NCBI GenBank assembly: GCA_007378955.1
Contig: VMGY01000007.1
Location: 8,644-72,643 of the forward strand
Direction of reading: 5' to 3'
DNA length: 64,000 bases
Source of the DNA: Parcubacteria group bacterium Athens0714_12
GTDB taxonomy: Bacteria; Patescibacteriota; Patescibacteriia; UBA2591; VMGY01
A program made the position numbers and the translations under genes. The notes under the pieces were generated by a model, which made no database searches, was not told the origin of the DNA, and worked only from the letters and a program-made list of their open reading frames with translations. Shown in pieces: positions 979-57,135 of this stretch; the stretch's first letter is position 1; each line of letters opens with the position of its first letter.

Positions 979-3660
979 ATGAAAAAAGGCAAAAAAATGA
1001 ACAAAGCCAAAACAGAGAAGTTCGTCTATTTTTTCGGCGCCGGCAAATCCGACGGCAATGGCAAGATGAAAGATTTATTAGGCGGCAAAGGAGCGAACTT
1101 GGCGGAAATGACCAATATCGGCGTGCCCGTGCCCCCCGGTTTTACGATTATCACAAAGGTTTGCAATTATTTTTCTGCTCAAGGAAAAGTTCCAACCGAG
1201 TTAAACGGCCAGATGAGAACAGCTTTAATAAAATTGGAAAAGATTGCTGAAAAGAAATTCGGCGATGTCGCGAATCCTTTATTGGTTTCTGTCCGTAGCG
1301 GCGCTAAATTTTCTATGCCCGGCATGATGGATACGATTTTAAACCTCGGCCTGAACGATAAAACAGTTGAAGGATTGGCTGAATTGACCAATAACGCCCG
1401 TTTCGCTTACGACGCTTACCGCCGTTTTATTCAGATGTTTGGCAATGTGGTTTTGGGAATTGAAAAAGAAGTTTTTGAAGAAATTTTAACTCACAAAAAA
1501 GAAATTTTAAAAATAAAATTAGACATAGAGATGAATGAAACCGCTTTGAAAGAATTGGTCAGAGAGTTTGAGGAAACGATTAAAGAAAAAACAAAAAAGA
1601 CTTTTCCTCAAGATGTTTATCGCCAGCTGGAAATGGCGCGGGACGCGGTTTTTAAATCATGGAATAATCCGCGGGCCGTCACTTACCGACGGCTTAATAA
1701 AATCGCCGATGATTTGGGCACAGCGGTTAATGTTCAGGCAATGGTTTTCGGCAATATGGGCAATGATTGCGCCACGGGCGTCGGCTTTACCAGAAATCCG
1801 GCCACTGGCGAAAAAGTTTTTTACGGCGAATATTTATTAAACGCGCAGGGCGAAGACGTGGTTGCCGGCATTCGCACTCCTCGCCAAATTGCTGACTTGA
1901 AAAAAGAAATGCCCAAAGTTTTCGAGCAATTAAAAAAGATTACCAATAGATTAGAGAAGGATTATAAAGACGTGCAGGATTTTGAATTTACGGTGGAAAA
2001 AAATAAATTGTATATGCTTCAGACCAGAAACGGAAAAAGAACCGCTCAAGCGGCGGTTAAAATCGCCGTTGATATGGTCAAGGAAAAATTAATCAAAAAA
2101 GAAGAGGCATTGACGCGGCTTGAGCCGGAACAAATAGACCAGTTGCTCCATCCGATTTTTGACCCAAAGATTAAAATTAACGCTATTGTCAAAGGCCTGC
2201 CGGCTTCACCGGGCGCGGCCGTGGGCAAGGTTGTTTTTACGGCTGATGAAGCGGCGGCAGTCGGCGATAAGGAAAAAGTTATTTTAGTCCGCACGGAAAC
2301 TTGCCCTGATGATATACATGGCATGGATGCCGCTCAAGGAATTTTAACTAGCCGCGGAGGAATGACTTCGCACGCCGCGGTTGTCGCCAGAGGTATGGGC
2401 AAATGCTGTGTCGTTGGCTGCGAAGAAGTAAAAGTTAATGAAAAAAAGAAAGAATTAAAAATTAAAGATAAGACAATTAAAGAAGGTGATTGGATTAGTT
2501 TAAATGGTTCAACCGGAGAAGTGATTTTAGGAAAAGTCGCCACGATTGAGCCGAAATTAAGTGGCGAGTTCGGCGAATTTATGAAATGGGCGGACCAAAT
2601 CCGCAAATTAAAAGTTCGGGCCAATGCCGACATCCCCCACGACGCTCAAGTGGCGCGCGGTTTCGGCGCTGAAGGAATCGGCTTATGCCGTACTGAACAT
2701 ATGTTTTTTGCCGAAGACAGGTTGCCGATGATGCAGGAAATGATTTTGGCGGATAATGAAAATGCTCGCCGTAAAGCTTTAAATAAATTATTAAATTTGC
2801 AGAAAAAAGATTTTAAAGGATTGTTTAAAGAAATGAAAGGTTATCCGGTGACGATTCGTTTATTAGACCCTCCTTTACATGAATTTTTGCCCAAAAGGGA
2901 AGAATTAATGAAGGAAGCGGCGGTAATGAAAGCGACGGGAGTTGATAAAAAAGAGCTTGAAAAGAAAGAAAAATTATTAATCAGAGTTGAAGAATTGCAC
3001 GAAGTAAATCCAATGTTAGGCCATCGAGGCTGCAGATTAGGCATTGTTTATCCGGAAATTACCGAGATGCAAGTTAAGGCGATTGTATCAGCCGCTTGCG
3101 AATTAGCCAAGGAAAAAGAAAAAATTATTCCGGAAATAATGGTGCCTTTGGTCGGGCATGTCAATGAATTAAAAAATCAAAAAGAGCTGATTAAAAAAGT
3201 CGCCCAAGAAACGATGAAGAGCTATGGGGTGAAAATAAAATATATGGTCGGCACGATGATTGAAGTTCCGAGAGCGGCGGTGACTGCCAATGAGATTGCT
3301 CAAGAGGCGGAATTTTTCTCTTTCGGCACTAATGATTTGACACAAATGGGTTTTGGTTTCAGCCGCGACGACGCCGGCAAATTCATAAAAATTTATATTA
3401 AAGATAAAATTTTAGAAGAAGACCCATTTCAGGTTTTAGACCAAAATGGCATCGGCCAGTTAGTCAAAATAGGTGTAGAAAAAGGCAGAAAAACCAAAAA
3501 AGATTTAAAGGTGGGAATTTGCGGCGAGCATGGCGGCGAACCAAGCTCGGTGATATTTTGTCACAATGTCGGCTTGAATTATGTAAGTTGTTCGCCTTAT
3601 CGCGTGCCCATTGCCCGCTTAGCGGCCGCTCAAGCGGTGATTTTTGGAAAAAAGAAATAA
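979..3660 (+). CDS. ppdK: pyruvate, phosphate dikinase
   Basis: 893 aa; N-terminal YFFGAGKSDGNGKMKDLLGGKGANLAEM, PEP-utilising and phosphohistidine regions (GGMTSHAAVVARGMGKCCVVG), C-terminal TIM-barrel motifs. Confidence 0.93.
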   Translation: MKKGKKMNKAKTEKFVYFFGAGKSDGNGKMKDLLGGKGANLAEMTNIGVPVPPGFTIITKVCNYFSAQGKVPTELNGQMRTALIKLEKIAEKKFGDVANPLLVSVRSGAKFSMPGMMDTILNLGLNDKTVEGLAELTNNARFAYDAYRRFIQMFGNVVLGIEKEVFEEILTHKKEILKIKLDIEMNETALKELVREFEETIKEKTKKTFPQDVYRQLEMARDAVFKSWNNPRAVTYRRLNKIADDLGTAVNVQAMVFGNMGNDCATGVGFTRNPATGEKVFYGEYLLNAQGEDVVAGIRTPRQIADLKKEMPKVFEQLKKITNRLEKDYKDVQDFEFTVEKNKLYMLQTRNGKRTAQAAVKIAVDMVKEKLIKKEEALTRLEPEQIDQLLHPIFDPKIKINAIVKGLPASPGAAVGKVVFTADEAAAVGDKEKVILVRTETCPDDIHGMDAAQGILTSRGGMTSHAAVVARGMGKCCVVGCEEVKVNEKKKELKIKDKTIKEGDWISLNGSTGEVILGKVATIEPKLSGEFGEFMKWADQIRKLKVRANADIPHDAQVARGFGAEGIGLCRTEHMFFAEDRLPMMQEMILADNENARRKALNKLLNLQKKDFKGLFKEMKGYPVTIRLLDPPLHEFLPKREELMKEAAVMKATGVDKKELEKKEKLLIRVEELHEVNPMLGHRGCRLGIVYPEITEMQVKAIVSAACELAKEKEKIIPEIMVPLVGHVNELKNQKELIKKVAQETMKSYGVKIKYMVGTMIEVPRAAVTANEIAQEAEFFSFGTNDLTQMGFGFSRDDAGKFIKIYIKDKILEEDPFQVLDQNGIGQLVKIGVEKGRKTKKDLKVGICGEHGGEPSSVIFCHNVGLNYVSCSPYRVPIARLAAAQAVIFGKKK

Positions 3661-4158: not shown

Positions 4159-4737
4159 ATGATATTATTTAATTATATGGATATGTTTGAAATAACTATT
4201 TGCGGGCGCGGCGGCCAAGGGTCAAAATTGGCAGCCCAAATTTTAGCCGAAGCGGCGCTGGAAGACGGAAAATACAGCCAGGCTTTTTCCCAATACGGGC
4301 CGGAAAGAACAGGCGCGCCGGTTACCAGCTACGCGAGAATTTCCAATCAGCCGATTTTGACGCATCAGCCGATTATAAAGCCCAACGCGGTTTTGATTTT
4401 AGATTCAAGTTTGTTGAAAGATTTGAATTTTAATAATGACGAAGTTTTGATTATTAATATTTGCCCTAATATAAAATTAGAAAAATTAAAAAATAAAACT
4501 TACAAGATAGACGCTTCTGACATTGCTTTAAAAATTTTAGGCAAGGACTTGCCGAATGTCGCCATGCTGGGAGCTTTGATAAAAATAACCGATTTATTGA
4601 AACTGCCTTCTTTGGAGAAAAGAATAAAAGAATATTTTGCCAAAAAATATAACGACAAAATGGCGGAACAAAATATTAAAGCGTTGCAAGAAGGTTATAA
4701 AACAATTTTATGCCCGGTAGTACAATTTCGAAAATAA
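4159..4737 (+). CDS. porG: pyruvate:ferredoxin oxidoreductase gamma subunit; the C-terminus is extended by 7 codons that read into the inserted element (native end predicted ...KTILC*)
   Basis: ICGRGGQG nucleotide-binding motif, PorG-like length; start uncertain (M at 4159, 4177 or 4183). Confidence 0.8.
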   Translation: MILFNYMDMFEITICGRGGQGSKLAAQILAEAALEDGKYSQAFSQYGPERTGAPVTSYARISNQPILTHQPIIKPNAVLILDSSLLKDLNFNNDEVLIINICPNIKLEKLKNKTYKIDASDIALKILGKDLPNVAMLGALIKITDLLKLPSLEKRIKEYFAKKYNDKMAEQNIKALQEGYKTILCPVVQFRK

Positions 4738-5061
4738 TTGTTAAACAAAAATTCGTCGCATATTACTGGGTTTACATTTTAGAAAGTGTAAACGATAAAA
4801 AAAGATATATAGGATTCGCTACTGATATCAAAAAAAGAATTAGAGAGCATAATAGCGGCATGGTTGTTTCCACAAATTATAGAAAACCGTTAAAATTGAT
4901 TTACGCCGAATTATGTTTAAACCAGAAAGATGCGAGAAGAAGAGAAAATTATTTTAAGAGAACTGGCGGTCGAAGATTTTTAGCCAAAAGACTAAAAGAG
5001 TATTATAAAATAAATAACAATTTTGAATAATAAATAATTCGAAGTTGTACTACCGGGTATG
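4709..5061 (+). mobile_element. small TIR-bounded element (4713-5057, 345 bp) carrying one GIY-YIG ORF, flanked by a duplicated TATG (4709-4712 and 5058-5061). It sits exactly at the porG stop / porD start overlap
   Basis: 20-bp terminal inverted repeats cccggtagtacaatttcgaa / ttcgaagttgtactaccggg (19/20). Removing the element restores an overlapping ...TTATGTTAAAA junction (porG TAA overlapping porD ATG). Confidence 0.75.
4710..5030 (+). CDS. stand-alone GIY-YIG nuclease domain protein (YhbQ/COG2827-like), encoded inside the TIR element; its start codon is the duplicated target ATG
   Basis: 106 aa; YYWVYILES...KRYIGFATDIKKRIREHN...R...N motif order typical of the GIY-YIG catalytic domain. 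Confidence 0.75.
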   Translation: MPGSTISKIIVKQKFVAYYWVYILESVNDKKRYIGFATDIKKRIREHNSGMVVSTNYRKPLKLIYAELCLNQKDARRRENYFKRTGGRRFLAKRLKEYYKINNNFE

Positions 5062-5340
5062 TTAAAATCGTCATCACAAATTCCATTGGGAGGCAATATT
5101 ATAAAGCCGGGTAATTCATCTGAATATAAAACCGGCAATTGGAAAACTTTTTCCCCGGTTTGGGACAAAGATAAATGCGCCCAATGTTTGATTTGTCCCG
5201 TGAATTGCCCGGAAAATTGCATTCCCGTGAAAGAGGGCAAGCGCCTTGAAACTAATTTTGATTTTTGCAAAGGTTGCGGAATATGCAGCCAAGTTTGTCC
5301 ATTCGGAGCGATACATATGAAAAAGTGCCAGACTTCTTAA
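5059..5340 (+). CDS. porD: pyruvate:ferredoxin oxidoreductase delta subunit (2x[4Fe-4S] ferredoxin)
   Basis: 93 aa; CAQCLICPVNCP and CKGCGICSQVCP motifs; start ATG supplied by the TATG at the element's right end. Confidence 0.85.
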   Translation: MLKSSSQIPLGGNIIKPGNSSEYKTGNWKTFSPVWDKDKCAQCLICPVNCPENCIPVKEGKRLETNFDFCKGCGICSQVCPFGAIHMKKCQTS

Positions 5341-5354
5341 ATTTTAAGTTATTT

Positions 5355-6527
5355 ATGAAAAATTTGAATAAAAATAAATATCAGGCGTTAATCGGCGGCC
5401 ACGCGGCGGCCGAAGCCATGCGGCAGATTAATCCGGAAGTAGTGGCCGCTTATCCGATTACGCCGCAAACGCCCATTATAGAAAAATTCGCCGAGTTTGC
5501 GGCTGATAAAAAAGTAGACACTGAATTTATTTGCGCGGAGTCCGAGCATTCGGCTTTAAGCGCCACGGTGGGCGCGTCAGCCGCCGGCGTGAGAGCGATG
5601 ACCGCCACTTCAAGCCAAGGGCTGGCTTTGATGAATGAAATTTTAAGCGTGGCGTCGGGCTTGCGTTTGCCGATTGTGATGCCAATGGTGAATCGCGCTC
5701 TTTCGGCGCCGATTAATATCCATTGCGACCATAGCGATTCAATGTCCGCCCGCGATTTGGGCTGGATTCAGATTTTTTGCGAGACAGCCCAAGAAGTTTA
5801 CGAATATACTTTTTTCGCTTTAAAGTTGGCGGAAAAAGTTTTATTGCCGGCCATGGTGATGCAGGATGGTTTTTCCACTTCTCACAATGTTGAGCCGGTT
5901 AAAATTTATCCTGATAAAATAATTAAAAAATTTATCGGCCAATACAAACCAAAATATTCTTTGCTTGATATAAAAAAACCCATTACTGTCGGGCCTTTGG
6001 TTTTACCTGATTATTATTTTGAAATTAAATATCAAGAAATAGAAGCGATGGAGGAAGCGCGAAAAGTTTATTTGGAAACAGGAAAAGAATTAAAAAAAAT
6101 TACCGGCAATAATTATCCTTATTTTGAGAAATATAAATTAGATGACGCCGAGGCGGCGATAGTAGTCAGCAGCTCTTCCGCCGGCACGGCCAAGGCAGTA
6201 ATAGATAAATTAAGAAAAGAAGGCAAAAAAGTCGGCTTGTTAAAACCAATTTTATTCAGGCCGTTTCCTCAAAAAGAAATAAGGGAAAGCTTAAAAAATT
6301 TAAAAATAATAGCGGTTTTGGACAGATCGGTTTCTTTCGGCGGCGAGGCGCCGCTTTTCAGCGAGATAAAAAATTCTCTTTATCCTTTGGATAAGAAGCC
6401 GTTGTTGCAAAGTTATGTTTTTGGCTTGGGAGGAAGAGATCTTTTTGAACAAGAAGTAGAAGAAGTTTTTGAAGAATTATTAAAAAATAAAACAGGGCAA
6501 GTTAAATATATCGGTCTAAGAAAATAA
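5355..6527 (+). CDS. porA: pyruvate:ferredoxin oxidoreductase alpha subunit
   Basis: N-terminal LIGGHAAAEAMRQINPEVVAAYPITPQT typical of PorA. I chose the ATG at 5355 because the track's 5265 start overlaps porD. Confidence 0.85.
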   Translation: MKNLNKNKYQALIGGHAAAEAMRQINPEVVAAYPITPQTPIIEKFAEFAADKKVDTEFICAESEHSALSATVGASAAGVRAMTATSSQGLALMNEILSVASGLRLPIVMPMVNRALSAPINIHCDHSDSMSARDLGWIQIFCETAQEVYEYTFFALKLAEKVLLPAMVMQDGFSTSHNVEPVKIYPDKIIKKFIGQYKPKYSLLDIKKPITVGPLVLPDYYFEIKYQEIEAMEEARKVYLETGKELKKITGNNYPYFEKYKLDDAEAAIVVSSSSAGTAKAVIDKLRKEGKKVGLLKPILFRPFPQKEIRESLKNLKIIAVLDRSVSFGGEAPLFSEIKNSLYPLDKKPLLQSYVFGLGGRDLFEQEVEEVFEELLKNKTGQVKYIGLRK

Positions 6528-6528
6528 A

Positions 6529-6679
6529 TATGCCCGGTAGGACAATTTTGACCAAGATTTTTCTTTTAGAAAAATCTAAAATTTACCAGGCTTAAAAATA
6601 ATTTATAATTTTATTAAAAGATAATTAATTTAAAAATTTTGACCAAAACAATAATGTCAAAATTGTACTACCGGGTATG
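6529..6679 (+). mobile_element. 143-bp non-coding miniature element (6533-6675) with the same TIRs as the 4713-5057 element, flanked by a duplicated TATG. It is inserted between the porA stop and the porB start
   Basis: TIRs cccggtaggacaattttgac / gtcaaaattgtactaccggg (19/20) share the core cccggtagtacaatt with the GIY-YIG element; contains an internal 9-bp stem hairpin; no ORF. Confidence 0.75.
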
Positions 6680-7585
6680 GATATCAAAACATTAGCTCAA
6701 AAAATAGATTCCGATAAAAAATTGGTTTCAGGCCACAGAACTTGTGCCGGTTGTGCCATTCCTATTATTGTCAGAACAATTTTATCTGCCACTGATAATT
6801 TTTTAGTAGCGGCTAATTCTACGGGTTGCATGGAAGTGACGACAACTATTTATCCTTATACTTCATGGAATATACCTTGGATTCATAATGCTTTTGAAAA
6901 TGTGGCGGCAACTCTTTCCGGAATAGAAGGCGCGTTTAAGGCTTTAAGAAAAAAAGGAAAAATAGACAAAGAAATTAAATTTGTGGCTTTTGGCGGCGAT
7001 GGCGGGCTTTATGATATAGGTTTGCAGTCATTGTCAGGCGCTTTGGAAAGAGGTCATAATTGCCTTTATGTTTGTTATAATAATGAAGCGTATCAGAATA
7101 CCGGCGGCCAACGTTCCTCGGGAACTTCAAAGGGTTCCATTACCACCACTACGCCAAAGGGTAAAAAAGAAGCCCGAAAAGATTTAATGCGGATTGTTTT
7201 GGCGCATCATATAGATTATGCCGCGCAGGCCGCGGTTCATAATATTTTAGACCTTTACCAAAAAGCGGAAAAAGCATTTAACGCAAAAGGCCCCAGTTTT
7301 TTAAATGTTTTATCGCCTTGCACTTTAAATTGGGGATTTATGCCAAATTCAACCATCAAGATTTCAAAATTGGCGGCTGACACTTGCTTTTGGCCGCTTT
7401 ATGAAGTAGAAAAAGGAAAATATAAATTAAATTATAATCCTTTTAAGAAATTGCCTCTTGAAGAATTTTTTAAGCTTCAAAAAAGATTTAGTTATCTTTT
7501 AAAGCCGGAAAATAAAAATTTTCTCAATGAAATTCAAAATGAAGTTGATGATAATTGGGAAGAGCTTCTAAAAAAATCCGGTTAA
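6677..7585 (+). CDS. porB: pyruvate:ferredoxin oxidoreductase beta subunit (TPP-binding)
   Basis: 302 aa; HRTCAGCA and GGDG TPP-binding motifs. Confidence 0.88.
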   Translation: MDIKTLAQKIDSDKKLVSGHRTCAGCAIPIIVRTILSATDNFLVAANSTGCMEVTTTIYPYTSWNIPWIHNAFENVAATLSGIEGAFKALRKKGKIDKEIKFVAFGGDGGLYDIGLQSLSGALERGHNCLYVCYNNEAYQNTGGQRSSGTSKGSITTTTPKGKKEARKDLMRIVLAHHIDYAAQAAVHNILDLYQKAEKAFNAKGPSFLNVLSPCTLNWGFMPNSTIKISKLAADTCFWPLYEVEKGKYKLNYNPFKKLPLEEFFKLQKRFSYLLKPENKNFLNEIQNEVDDNWEELLKKSG

Positions 7586-33277: not shown

Positions 33278-33595
33278 ATGTTATTGTCAATCCCGCACCT
33301 TTTAAGCACTAAGCTATGCATTGGGTTTATTATCAAAAGTAAAAAGAATAATTTATTATATATTGGCAGCACTCTTAATTTAGAAAAAAGATTTAAAGAG
33401 TTTTGTAACCATCTCAAAGAACATAATGAAGGGAAATCATTGTCAACTAAAAAATATAAACCTTGGGTTTTAGTTTATGCCGAATGTTATTTTTTAAAAG
33501 AAGATGCTTTATCTCGTGAACGAAATCTAAAATATTTTGGAAAAATTTACGCCCAACTTAAAAGAAGAATAAAAAATAGCATTCAGGGTGCTTAA
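33278..33595 (+). CDS. stand-alone GIY-YIG nuclease domain protein (YhbQ/COG2827-like), second copy; start and stop codons lie within the element termini
   Basis: 105 aa; IGFIIKSKKNNLLYIGSTLNLEKRFKEH...R...N GIY-YIG motif pattern; about 25% identity to the 4710-5030 protein. Confidence 0.7.
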   Translation: MLLSIPHLLSTKLCIGFIIKSKKNNLLYIGSTLNLEKRFKEFCNHLKEHNEGKSLSTKKYKPWVLVYAECYFLKEDALSRERNLKYFGKIYAQLKRRIKNSIQGA

Positions 33596-33613
33596 GAGGT
33601 GCGGGATCAATAA
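33281..33613 (+). mobile_element. second small TIR-bounded GIY-YIG element (about 333 bp), different TIR sequence family, inserted about 22 bp upstream of the pilM start
   Basis: Imperfect about 27-bp inverted repeats ttattgtcaatcccgcaccttttaagcac / gtgcttaagaggtgcgggatcaataa; ATG-containing flanks (taATG / ctttATG). Confidence 0.6.
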
Positions 33614-36645: not shown

Positions 36646-36656
36646 CAATATTATTT

Positions 36657-38393
36657 ATGATTAAAAGAGATTATCAAAATAAATTACTCAGTATTTTTTT
36701 GGAAGAAGGATTGCTTTCACCAGATCAAATAAATGAATTAAAGAAAGAATCTTTAAAAACCAAACAAAGCATCGAGGATTTAATTAAAACTAAAAAATTA
36801 ATAAAAGAGGATGAATTATTAATGGCAAAAAGCAAATTTTTTAACCTTCCGACAGTGGATCTTTCTAGGGAAATTATTAAAAAAGATGTTTTGGAAATTA
36901 TTCCCAAAGAATTAGCTGAAAATTATCAGATGATCGCTTTTGGTAAAATAGGAAATAAATTAAAGGTGGCAATTGAAGACCCTGATAATTTAAAAGCCAA
37001 AGAGGCAATAGAGTTTTTAGCGCGCAGTAAGGATTTAAAGGTAGAATATTATTTAGCCAGTAAAGAAGTATTATCCAATATTTTACAACGGCACGAAGAG
37101 TCAAAAAAAGAAATAGAAGAAGCTTTGTCAGTGGCCGAAGGCAAGGCAAAAGTTGTTTCAAGAACATCATTAAAGGAGAAAGGTTTTGAGGAAATAATAA
37201 AAGGCGCTCCCATTTCCAAAATAATAAGCGTAATTTTAAGGGACGCGGTGGAGGGGGGAGCTTCTGATGTGCATATTGAGCCAGAGGGAGAGGTAAGTCG
37301 GGTGAGATACAGGGTTGACGGAGTTTTGCGCGTGGTTCTTACCTTGCCTAAATATATACACAGTTCCCTTATTTCAAGAATTAAAGTTTTAGCTAATTTA
37401 AAATTAGATGAAACAAGAATTCCTCAAGATGGAAGAATCAGAGAAATATTTGATAACAAAATAATTGATTTTAGAGTTTCTACCTTTCCTTTATTGGATA
37501 ATGAAAAAGCGGTAATGAGAATTTTAAAAACCGGGGAAGCTCTTACTTTGGAAGAGCTTGGTTTTTGGGGCAAGGGATTGCAAGTAATCGAAAGAAATAT
37601 TCAGAGGCCTTCGGGATTGTTTTTGGTTACCGGGCCGACGGGCAGCGGGAAAACTACCAGCCTTTATTCTGTTTTAAATATACTTAATAAAGAAAGCATT
37701 AATATTATTACCTTGGAAGATCCAATAGAATATTATTTAGAAGGTGTTAATCAGTCGCAGGTAAGGCCGGAAATAGGATTTAATTTTGCTTCCGGCTTAA
37801 GGGCAATTTTGAGGCAAGACCCGAATGTCGTCATGGTGGGAGAAATCAGGGATTTTGAAACAGCGGAATTGGCTATTCACGCGGGTTTAACCGGTCATAT
37901 CGTTCTTTCAACTTTGCACACCAATGATACTTTCGGGGCCGTTCCTCGTTTGATTGATATGAAAATAGAGCCATTTTTAATCGCTTCCACTTTAAATATA
38001 ATAATCGCGCAAAGATTAGTAAGAAAAATTTGTCCTGATTGCAAAGAAGAAGATGTTTTGCCAAAGGGGGTAATAAAAGAAATTTACGCGGAAATAGAAA
38101 ATATTCCTAATTTAGAAAAATATTTGCCTCAAAAAACAGAAAAAATGAAATTTTACAAAGGCAAGGGATGCTCTAATTGTCAAAATAGAGGGTATCAAGG
38201 AAGAATAGCGATTACCGAAGTATTGGATATAACAGACGAGATGAAAGAAATTATTACCAACGGCTGTAAAATAGATGAAGTAAAAAAAGAATTCAAAAAT
38301 CAAGAAATGCTTTCTATGAAGCAAGACGGGATTATAAAAGCAATTAAAGGATTTACTTCTTTGGAAGAAATAATAACCGCGACAAGGACATAG
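36657..38393 (+). CDS. pilB: type IV pilus assembly ATPase PilB (GspE family)
   Basis: Walker A GPTGSGKT, Asp/His boxes, tetracysteine C..C...C..C, N-terminal GspE_N domain. Confidence 0.9.
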   Translation: MIKRDYQNKLLSIFLEEGLLSPDQINELKKESLKTKQSIEDLIKTKKLIKEDELLMAKSKFFNLPTVDLSREIIKKDVLEIIPKELAENYQMIAFGKIGNKLKVAIEDPDNLKAKEAIEFLARSKDLKVEYYLASKEVLSNILQRHEESKKEIEEALSVAEGKAKVVSRTSLKEKGFEEIIKGAPISKIISVILRDAVEGGASDVHIEPEGEVSRVRYRVDGVLRVVLTLPKYIHSSLISRIKVLANLKLDETRIPQDGRIREIFDNKIIDFRVSTFPLLDNEKAVMRILKTGEALTLEELGFWGKGLQVIERNIQRPSGLFLVTGPTGSGKTTSLYSVLNILNKESINIITLEDPIEYYLEGVNQSQVRPEIGFNFASGLRAILRQDPNVVMVGEIRDFETAELAIHAGLTGHIVLSTLHTNDTFGAVPRLIDMKIEPFLIASTLNIIIAQRLVRKICPDCKEEDVLPKGVIKEIYAEIENIPNLEKYLPQKTEKMKFYKGKGCSNCQNRGYQGRIAITEVLDITDEMKEIITNGCKIDEVKKEFKNQEMLSMKQDGIIKAIKGFTSLEEIITATRT

Positions 38394-56586: not shown

Positions 56587-57135
56587 TTATTTTTTTCCAA
56601 TTAAGGCGATTAGCTTGTTTCCCTGCTTGCTTATCGGCTGTTCAATATTTATTTCTCCCAATTCTTTGATAAAATTTTCAACGATTACTCTCGCTATGTC
56701 AAAGCGGCTTTTCTCTCTTCCTCTTAAAATCATTTCTATTTTTACCTTATTGCCTTGCCCCAAAAATTTTTTTGATTGATTTAATTTTAATTGTATATCT
56801 CCTTTTCCGATTTTAAAACTCAGTCTGATTCCTTTTATTTTTATTTTTTCCTGTTTTGTTTTTTGTTTCTGCTCTTTTTTCTTTATTTCGTATTTAAATT
56901 GTCCAAAATTTAAAAGTTTTGCTACCGGAGGCGCGGCTTTGGGCGAGATTTCCACTAAGTCAAATCCTTTTTCTTTCGCCATATTTAAAGCTTCGGAGAT
57001 GGAGACAATGCCAAGATAGCTTCCTTTTTCGTCTATTAGGCGGACTTGAGGAACTCTAATTTGATTGTTAATTCGATAACGTTGTTGAATATTTTTTAAA
57101 TTAAAAATAAGATGGCTTGCCGTCCGAAGCCCCAA
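56587..57135 (-). CDS. infC: translation initiation factor IF-3; true start probably an atypical codon downstream of the track's ATG
   Basis: IRVPQVRLIDEKGSYLGIVSISEALNMAKEKGFDLVEISP typical of IF-3. Confidence 0.85.
   Translation of the reverse strand: MGLRTASHLIFNLKNIQQRYRINNQIRVPQVRLIDEKGSYLGIVSISEALNMAKEKGFDLVEISPKAAPPVAKLLNFGQFKYEIKKKEQKQKTKQEKIKIKGIRLSFKIGKGDIQLKLNQSKKFLGQGNKVKIEMILRGREKSRFDIARVIVENFIKELGEINIEQPISKQGNKLIALIGKK

Follow-up and report, generated by a model that had tools for sequence, protein, structure and literature searches.

The stretch of DNA analysed here (the window) comprises 64,000 nt of contig VMGY01000007.1 from Parcubacteria group bacterium Athens0714_12 (assembly GCA_007378955.1, positions 8,644 to 72,643 of the forward strand) and carries a pyruvate oxidoreductase (por) operon in which two gene junctions are occupied by short segments with the same ends (Table 1). 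Between porG and porD lies a 345-bp segment bounded by terminal inverted repeats (TIRs) and flanked on both sides by TATG, the only open reading frame (ORF) of which encodes a small GIY-YIG nuclease. The other junction, between porA (POR_N and PFOR_II by Pfam) and porB (TPP_enzyme_C), holds a 143-bp segment that resembles the miniature inverted-repeat type of transposable element (MITE). The edges of the longer segment read ...ttTATG/CCCGGTAGTACAATTTCGAA...TTCGAAGTTGTACTACCGGG/TATGtta. A repeat search returned inverted arms of 23 nt with 91% identity for it (4710-4732 and 5038-5060), and arms of equal length and identity for the shorter one (6530-6552 and 6656-6678). The ATG at 4710-4712, within the left TATG, is the start codon of the nuclease ORF and occupies the position at which porD originally began. 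This arrangement of TIRs, TATG flanks and a single GIY-YIG ORF opening on the left ATG had been proposed in a first-pass annotation made from the sequence alone, and was borne out by the sequence itself, the repeat search and Pfam.

Three contigs of relatives (L128, L129 and L130), with PorA proteins 89-90% identical to that of the window, contain the same por operon. In all three, porG (2695-3225) and porD (3219-3494) overlap by seven bases (ATGTTAA) with a single TATG and no insert, PorG is 176 residues long and ends at this overlap, and porA and porB are adjacent, again with a single TATG and no insert. Alignments show both window elements as clean insertions beside a single TATG, and as the relatives have the unoccupied site at both junctions, the window elements are real insertions of mobile DNA. 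The first-pass annotation had proposed that removal of the 345-bp segment would restore a translationally coupled porG/porD junction and that an empty site should be sought in close relatives; the ATGTTAA overlap is exactly what these contigs contain, and the empty site is present at both positions. Its count of seven residues added to PorG was likewise right, as in silico deletion of 4713-5061 converts the end of the protein from ...TILC-PVVQFRK-stop into ...TILC-stop. A closer relative (L131) carries the MITE at the identical porA/porB site, and its contig starts within the element at porG/porD. Another contig from the same sample (L001) has a nuclease copy 85% identical to that of the window, at another locus, arranged as TATG/TIR...TIR/TATG on the start codon of a different gene. 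The window also contains a homologue of this L001 target gene, a pilB/type II secretion system ATPase-like gene that begins with a vacant TATG (36654-36660).

Table 1. Genes, elements and element parts in the window, and coding copies found in core operons of other contigs (L numbers)
Feature	Position	Strand	Remarks
porG (gamma subunit)	4159-4737	+	PF01558; C-terminus extended by 7 residues (PVVQFRK) coded by the left TIR
Left target-site duplication, TATG	4709-4712	+	Sequence; single TATG at the empty site of L128/L129
GIY-YIG ORF, 106 aa, sole ORF of the element	4710-5030	+	PF01541; UPF0213/Slx1-like type
Coding element, 345 bp	4713-5057	+	TIRs of 20 bp, 19/20 matched; TATG on either side
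Left TIR, CCCGGTAGTACAATTTCGAA	4713-4732	+	Also codes nuclease residues 2-8 (PGSTISK)
Right TIR, TTCGAAGTTGTACTACCGGG	5038-5057	+	Repeat search, TIR-core scan
Right TATG copy	5058-5061	+	Its ATG (5059) restores the start codon of porD
porD (delta subunit, 2x4Fe-4S)	5059-5340	+	Fer4; host gene with the start codon struck
Left TATG of the MITE	6529-6532	+	1 nt past the porA stop (6525-6527)
MITE-like, candidate non-autonomous copy, 143 bp	6533-6675	+	Ends and flanks as in 4713-5057
Left TIR of the MITE, CCCGGTAGGACAATTTTGAC	6533-6552	+	Repeat search
Right TIR of the MITE, GTCAAAATTGTACTACCGGG	6656-6675	+	Repeat search
Right TATG of the MITE	6676-6679	+	Its ATG (6677) restores the start codon of porB
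Second GIY-YIG element	33287-33610	+	TCAA on both sides; gene 38% identical to the first
Left TIR of the second element, 19 bp, TCCCGCACCTTTTAAGCAC	33291-33309	+	Unlike the first-family TIRs
Right TIR of the second element, 19 bp, GTGCTTAAGAGGTGCGGGA	33588-33606	+	Unlike the first-family TIRs
Coding copy, L147	1198-1510		secY/adk
Coding copy, L148	1198-1504		rplF/rplR
Coding copy, L149	1160-1490		dnaG/rpoD
Coding copy, L146	1198-1512		Upstream of polX

Within the window, a 15-nt core of the TIR occurs five times at up to three mismatches, against 0.88 expected, and none of 100 shuffled sequences reached five. Four of these occurrences are the ends of the two elements, with 0-1 mismatch. The other (56900-56929, minus strand; …TTTTGCTACCGGA) is a lone weak match with no partner end, probably due to chance or a relic.

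To place the two elements in a wider context, genomes were scanned, one per species, with a 19-nt TIR pattern. At least 116 loci matched, and the figures given below refer to the matches listed; the family, flank and start-codon counts rest on these scanned loci, which are genome fragments. As about 140 single matches to the pattern are expected by chance in 596 Gb by our estimate, paired ends alone were taken as evidence, and lone matches in genomes outside the Patescibacteria were set aside. Element boundaries across the family were anchored on CCCRG, TATG itself being partly palindromic. At least 104 paired elements were recovered, and the matches lie almost entirely in Patescibacteria, among them Saccharibacteria, Kaiser-, Moran-, Uhr- and Adlerbacteria, and Parcubacteria. 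The recurrence of TIRs and flanking duplications, which the first-pass annotation had named as a check of its proposal, is therefore observed across many Patescibacteria genomes, at about 100 further loci. Most elements measure 131-136 bp, and seven of the 104 measure 299-345 bp and encode the nuclease, a number that rises to 11 with the copies fetched through the protein. When longer elements with these ends were sought in the range of 700-3500 bp, the sole candidate was a spurious pairing of 1035 bp with a poor left end, and no other candidate transposase bounded by these TIRs was found among the 104 paired copies or 41 single ends in about 116 loci. Viral contigs searched with the TIR pattern gave no match, nor did a plasmid DNA search or a phage protein search. 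PADLOC and PHROGs returned nothing meaningful, so a reading as defence system or phage gene is unsupported.

The elements duplicate their target. The 4-bp flanks are identical in 81 of the 104 paired elements, being TATG/CATA in 68, CATG in 5, TTTA in 4, and CAAA, TAGA, TGTA and CGTA in one each; the duplications that do not contain ATG (TTTA, CAAA, TAGA, TGTA and CGTA) show that the flanking repeat is copied from the target. They also choose start codons, as the first-pass annotation had supposed from the two insertions at por. In 79 of 88 elements an ORF of 60 codons or more begins at the right-hand ATG, compared with 32% of TATG sites generally. By gene calls that are crude and made with a simple ORF caller, 47 insertions lie on start codons, 5 on intergenic TATG and 16 in apparently genic positions, compared with 304, 489 and 2267, respectively, for all TATG sites. 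The 16 apparently genic insertions mostly concern ORFs that this caller had lengthened upstream. Among sites where insertion disrupts no gene, the ratio of 47:5 against a background of 304:489 means that the excess at start codons goes well beyond avoidance of genes. An extended target motif was discarded as the cause of this preference, since the flanks show only a T at position -1 followed by ATG. The upstream contexts are mixed, with a -10-like box in 12 of 78 and a Shine-Dalgarno-like motif in 9 of 78.

Insertion is also oriented. Where the two ends of an element are unequal, as in one subfamily, its polarity matches that of TATG in about 27 of 28 copies. Another subfamily, with ends of the type CCCAGT(T)AG (L002 797-948; L048 447-533 and 3549-3652; L126 7393-7479), has TTTA/TAAA duplications instead of TATG, and its TTTA-flanked copies are still sense-oriented and precede a start codon by 7-10 nt. 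The downstream ATG is regenerated, as the first-pass annotation had proposed: all 78 oriented copies have a T immediately ahead of the host ATG, compared with T in 68, C in 8, A in 1 and G in 1 before the left ATG. Where the two flanks differ, it is invariably the left that is not T and the right that is. An invariant T on the right next to a variable base on the left suggests, from the sequences of the flanks, a 3-bp duplication together with a T carried by the element. In L146 and L149 the right-hand T is absent, leaving a 3-bp repeat of ATG.

The protein encoded by the coding element matches PF01541 with 56.4 bits (cut-off 22.6; E = 3.6e-15) over residues 18-87, and contains no other domain. 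Across 37 sequences of both nuclease lineages considered here, Y22, Y33, G35, R43 and E79 are invariant and H47, E67 and R78 are at least 90% conserved. The ratio of nonsynonymous to synonymous substitution rates between the window and L001 copies, which occupy different loci, is 0.16, and the nuclease is under purifying selection. An AlphaFold2 model (pLDDT 84) consists of the GIY-YIG core and a long C-terminal helix. In phmmer searches the best matches, with modest E-values, were 1zg2 (6e-5), 1ywl (5e-4) and Slx1 (4e-3). In Foldseek 1zg2 and Slx1 (7cq2/7cq3, TM scores of about 0.57-0.59 over the query) ranked on top, and I-TevI appeared at E of about 1. Both sequence and predicted fold thus point to the UPF0213/YhbQ-like (Slx1-type) subfamily. 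As many as 4793 clusters (50% identity, E <= 0.001) are related to the window protein. No recognised transposase class (DDE, DEDD, HUH, serine or tyrosine) is represented in the coding elements, in which the GIY-YIG gene is the only ORF and nothing else fits in 299-345 bp.

All 11 examined copies of 299-345 bp code for this protein alone, from TIR to TIR, and gene and ends are fused to each other. The ORF starts with the left duplication's ATG and runs on through the left TIR, which supplies residues 2-8 (PGSTTSN/K). The N-terminal MPGSTTS and the C-terminal ..NSKLY-stop or ..CTTGY tails are all coded by TIRs; in one subfamily the final residues and stop codon (..NSKLY-TAA) are the right TIR itself, 9 nt before the host ATG. 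Coding copies are always co-oriented with a gene and immediately ahead of it. Besides the core operons listed in Table 1, they occupy a type IV secretion-like cluster and the por operon. In L147 the element's own ATG is mutated to ATT and the host ATG is intact.

A second GIY-YIG element in the window stands 30 nt upstream of a pilM-like gene. Its ORF (33278/33284-33595) also has termini coded by its TIRs (PHLLST... and ...AEKVRG), and relatives have the same TIR type with duplications of TAAA (L132) or TTGA (L136, in which TTG is the start codon). There are therefore two nuclease lineages that have different TIRs and a 4-bp duplication in common, so that TIR sequence tracks nuclease lineage; we consider this, at the level of sequence, the strongest indirect argument for the nuclease as the mobility enzyme. 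A third, more distant nuclease lineage (L150) has a related TIR variant (CCCCCTCACCTAATTA and TAATTAGGTGCGGGGG) that ends 3 nt before the host ATG, with no matching duplication seen. A 76-residue GIY-YIG homologue in a Bacteroidota-like context (L151 801-1031, beside a Por_Secre_tail gene) is not bounded by inverted repeats. The suggestion that stand-alone small GIY-YIG proteins are genes of mobile elements consequently stands for the TIR-bounded copies of Patescibacteria and fails as a statement about every YhbQ-like gene.

The 143-bp segment at porA/porB has the features of a MITE. It is shorter than 300 bp and has no coding capacity, its sole coding trace being a 21-codon remnant ORF (MPGRTILTK...), and it has TIRs, a duplication, about 90 similar copies, ends in common with the GIY-YIG copies and an empty site in relatives. 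Its description as a MITE in the first-pass annotation was supported, and it belongs to a large gene-less family. The interiors of these MITEs are 60-82% alike within a genome and their TIRs are conserved. Read as RNA, the window copy forms a 23-bp terminal stem (z = -7.8), and copies of the family generally form a terminal stem of about 23 bp that takes in the first AUG and reaches to just short of the second (z from -5 to -8.7). An Rfam scan of 4600-6800 gave chance-level matches only (E > 3, far under the gathering scores), which rules out a known structured RNA motif as the identity of the segment. Fifteen MITEs retain an ORF of 42-43 codons ending 9 nt before the host ATG. A role as in-frame N-terminal extensions of host proteins was considered and rejected, as element lengths fall in all three frames (30/22/19), mostly with early stops.

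Two further arrangements show the elements inserting into or beside each other. In L057 (6529-6967), an intact MITE comes directly after a GIY-YIG copy that has decayed, its TIRs degenerate and its ORF interrupted by an in-frame stop, both at one start codon, so a regenerated TATG can be struck again. In addition, micro-elements of 31-32 bp (L002 2525-2556; L074 6054-6084), palindromic and composed of two TIR tips only, lie inside coding copies with short duplications of their own (CGAA and GAAG). That of L002 is in frame and has been inherited by several proteins (P0004, P0017, P0021 and P0036).

Taken together, these data suggest that the 345-bp segment is probably an autonomous member, and the 143-bp segment a non-autonomous one, of a Patescibacteria family of very small DNA transposons, the sole gene of which encodes a GIY-YIG nuclease of about 95-106 residues. 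We rate this anatomy as lying outside every known transposon class. The anatomy itself, the conservation of the nuclease and the second family with different TIRs lead us to infer that the nuclease performs both excision and target cleavage, and the manner of strand rejoining proposed below is likewise an inference. The enzyme would recognise the conserved 20-bp ends (CCCRGTAGNACAAYTTYGA), both on its own copy and on the MITEs, probably as a folded-back stem or branched structure, as Slx1 does; this form of recognition is suggested by the Slx1-like fold and by the micro-elements, which we judge too short for looped pairing of their ends and natural as hairpins. Cuts would then be made at the boundaries between element and flank, and the element would enter a (T)ATG site opened by a staggered break of 3-4 nt, with host repair and ligation finishing the 3-4-bp duplication. 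By landing on a start codon, the nuclease ORF would take over the transcription and translation start signals of the host gene (promoter and ribosome-binding context), and the host ATG would be rebuilt right after the right end of the element. The host gene could thus still be translated, either by re-initiation past the element's stop codon or because the first AUG is buried in the terminal stem, which places the upstream signals beside the second. Start-codon landing, takeover of signals and regeneration of ATG would together account for the tolerance of these elements in highly reduced genomes, inside the operons of ribosomal proteins, secY-adk, dnaG-rpoD and por. On a broader proposal our confidence is evenly divided, namely that an unrecognised class of DNA transposon has the small stand-alone GIY-YIG nucleases of Patescibacteria as its transposases. 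Such a class would consist of a one-ORF element of about 300 bp, the smallest autonomous one known, probably handled as hairpin or branched DNA, which homes on start codons, spawns MITEs and micro-elements, and comprises at least two lineages distinguished by their ends.

Several points weigh against this interpretation. To our knowledge, no GIY-YIG enzyme transposes and strand transfer is not known for the fold. The GIY-YIG fold has one active site and hydrolyses DNA, and joining would consequently require host functions. A protein of 100 residues would have to read a 20-bp end with no separate DNA-binding domain. The invariant T on the right and the variable base on the left fit poorly with a simple 4-bp duplication, and the excess at start codons, which comes with no extended sequence motif, may partly reflect selection after insertion. 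A recent burst of transposition finds no support, given the 60-82% likeness of MITE interiors within a genome; some copies are common to related genomes (L131 and the window) and others are decaying (L057 and L147). Finally, as genome fragments alone were examined, an unlinked transposase is possible.

This last point leads to the rival view that a conventional transposase (DDE or other), encoded at an unlinked locus and reading the same TIRs, moves the MITE family in trans, with the GIY-YIG ORF as a passenger, for example a selfish nuclease that aids retention. MITEs generally need a transposase coded elsewhere, 3-4-bp duplications are typical of DDE staggered cuts, most copies have no nuclease gene, and GIY-YIG enzymes are not known for strand transfer, all of which would suit such a scheme. 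However, no larger element with these TIRs was found in the loci scanned, and the ORF is fused to both TIRs with its start in the duplication, unlike a cargo gene with its own signals. Moreover, the second nuclease lineage combines different TIRs of its own with the 4-bp duplication seen in the first, and the micro-elements are hard to fit with a looped paired-end complex, for which reasons we regard mobilisation in trans as rather unlikely. The third possibility, that a free-standing GIY-YIG homing endonuclease gene similar to T4 seg cuts the empty allele and is copied by homologous repair, appears very unlikely indeed. The GIY-YIG domain, a weak match to the TIGR01453 model of group I intron endonucleases (18.3 bits, cut-off 56) and tight insertion between conserved genes, none of them disrupted, would agree with it, but the unrelated loci have only (T)ATG in common and so offer no flanking homology to copy from. 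TIRs, target duplications and some 90 gene-less copies are foreign to homing, the protein has no DNA-binding domain and its fold is nearer to Slx1/UPF0213 than to I-TevI, and neither viral contigs nor phage proteins gave a match.

The repeats could also have been domesticated for the benefit of the host in the manner of REP/REPIN sequences and their RAYT proteins, as hairpins at gene starts that control translation or mRNA stability, with the nuclease as their maintainer. The strong conservation of TIRs over distant lineages while interiors drift is in line with this idea, as are the sense-oriented copies at the 5' ends of genes (essential operons included), the strong terminal stems masking the first AUG and the upstream ORF kept by 15 MITEs. 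Against it, presence and absence vary among close relatives, the host genes are mutually unrelated and no regulatory RNA family was matched, whereas pseudogenised and tandem copies, together with micro-elements nested in the nuclease gene, are the behaviour of a parasite. Domestication is for these reasons improbable, and a nuclease-borne transposon family is the reading that we retain for what follows.

Transposons are classed by the enzyme that mobilises them, and few catalytic classes are known. If the proposal is true, a bare GIY-YIG nuclease adds an enzyme class to transposition, and the lower size limit for a self-contained mobile element becomes about 300 bp with one protein of 95-106 residues; the family may thus represent a novel transposon type and, among self-contained ones, the smallest. 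A role would also be offered for many hypothetical GIY-YIG proteins of about 100 residues. The copies have practical consequences as well, since they distort gene calls (as in the lengthened PorG) and break assemblies (L131 begins inside a copy). In addition, so small a nuclease, having a defined 20-bp site and a target of 3-4 nt, might become a useful tool if its activity is confirmed. In the literature searched, the coverage of which is incomplete and includes few subscription journals, neither a GIY-YIG-only element with TIRs nor start-codon-targeting MITEs in Patescibacteria were described.

Known systems resemble the family in some of its parts. GIY-YIG domains serve mobile elements by cutting the target in homing endonucleases (I-TevI and T4 Seg) and in Penelope-like retroelements, but those enzymes have DNA-binding domains or are fused to a reverse transcriptase, and they spread by homologous repair or reverse transcription. 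The present family has neither an additional domain nor a reverse transcriptase, and its insertion sites share no homology. The UPF0213/YhbQ proteins (COG2827) are, like the element's nuclease, bare catalytic domains of about 100 residues, and with Slx1 they provide its best sequence and fold matches. Genes of the YhbQ type are nevertheless treated as ordinary chromosomal genes of unknown role, and Slx1 acts with Slx4 in eukaryotic repair; we know of no report of a UPF0213/YhbQ or Slx1 protein bounded by TIRs.

Among small repeats, the bacterial MITEs Correia/NEMIS of Neisseria, RUP and ERIC are similar to the 143-bp copy and its roughly 90 relatives in size (100-150 bp), TIRs, short duplication, multiple copies, lack of an ORF and hairpins in mRNA. 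Those MITEs, however, derive from or are assumed to depend on DDE insertion sequences and have no start-codon specificity or fixed polarity, whereas here the full-length partner codes for a GIY-YIG nuclease only and insertion occurs in the sense orientation on (T)ATG start codons. The REP/REPIN system offers another parallel, as a single small nuclease gene lies between inverted repeats that are also scattered as hairpin doublets, but RAYTs are HUH enzymes, and REPINs are inherited vertically, occur mainly between convergent genes and have no duplications, in contrast to the presence/absence polymorphism, duplications and start-codon location of the elements described here. The smallest autonomous bacterial transposons known are those of the IS200/IS605 group, which move by single-strand 'peel and paste' and measure about 0.7 kb, with a nuclease-type transposase of about 150 residues. 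They likewise use a tetra- or pentanucleotide target, insert in a strict orientation and have folded DNA ends, with the difference that their TnpA is an HUH/Y1 enzyme acting through a covalent intermediate on subterminal hairpins, and that they make no target duplication. Compared with them, the Patescibacteria elements have no HUH domain, end in true 20-bp TIRs, duplicate 3-4 bp of their target and are, at 299-345 bp, half the size.

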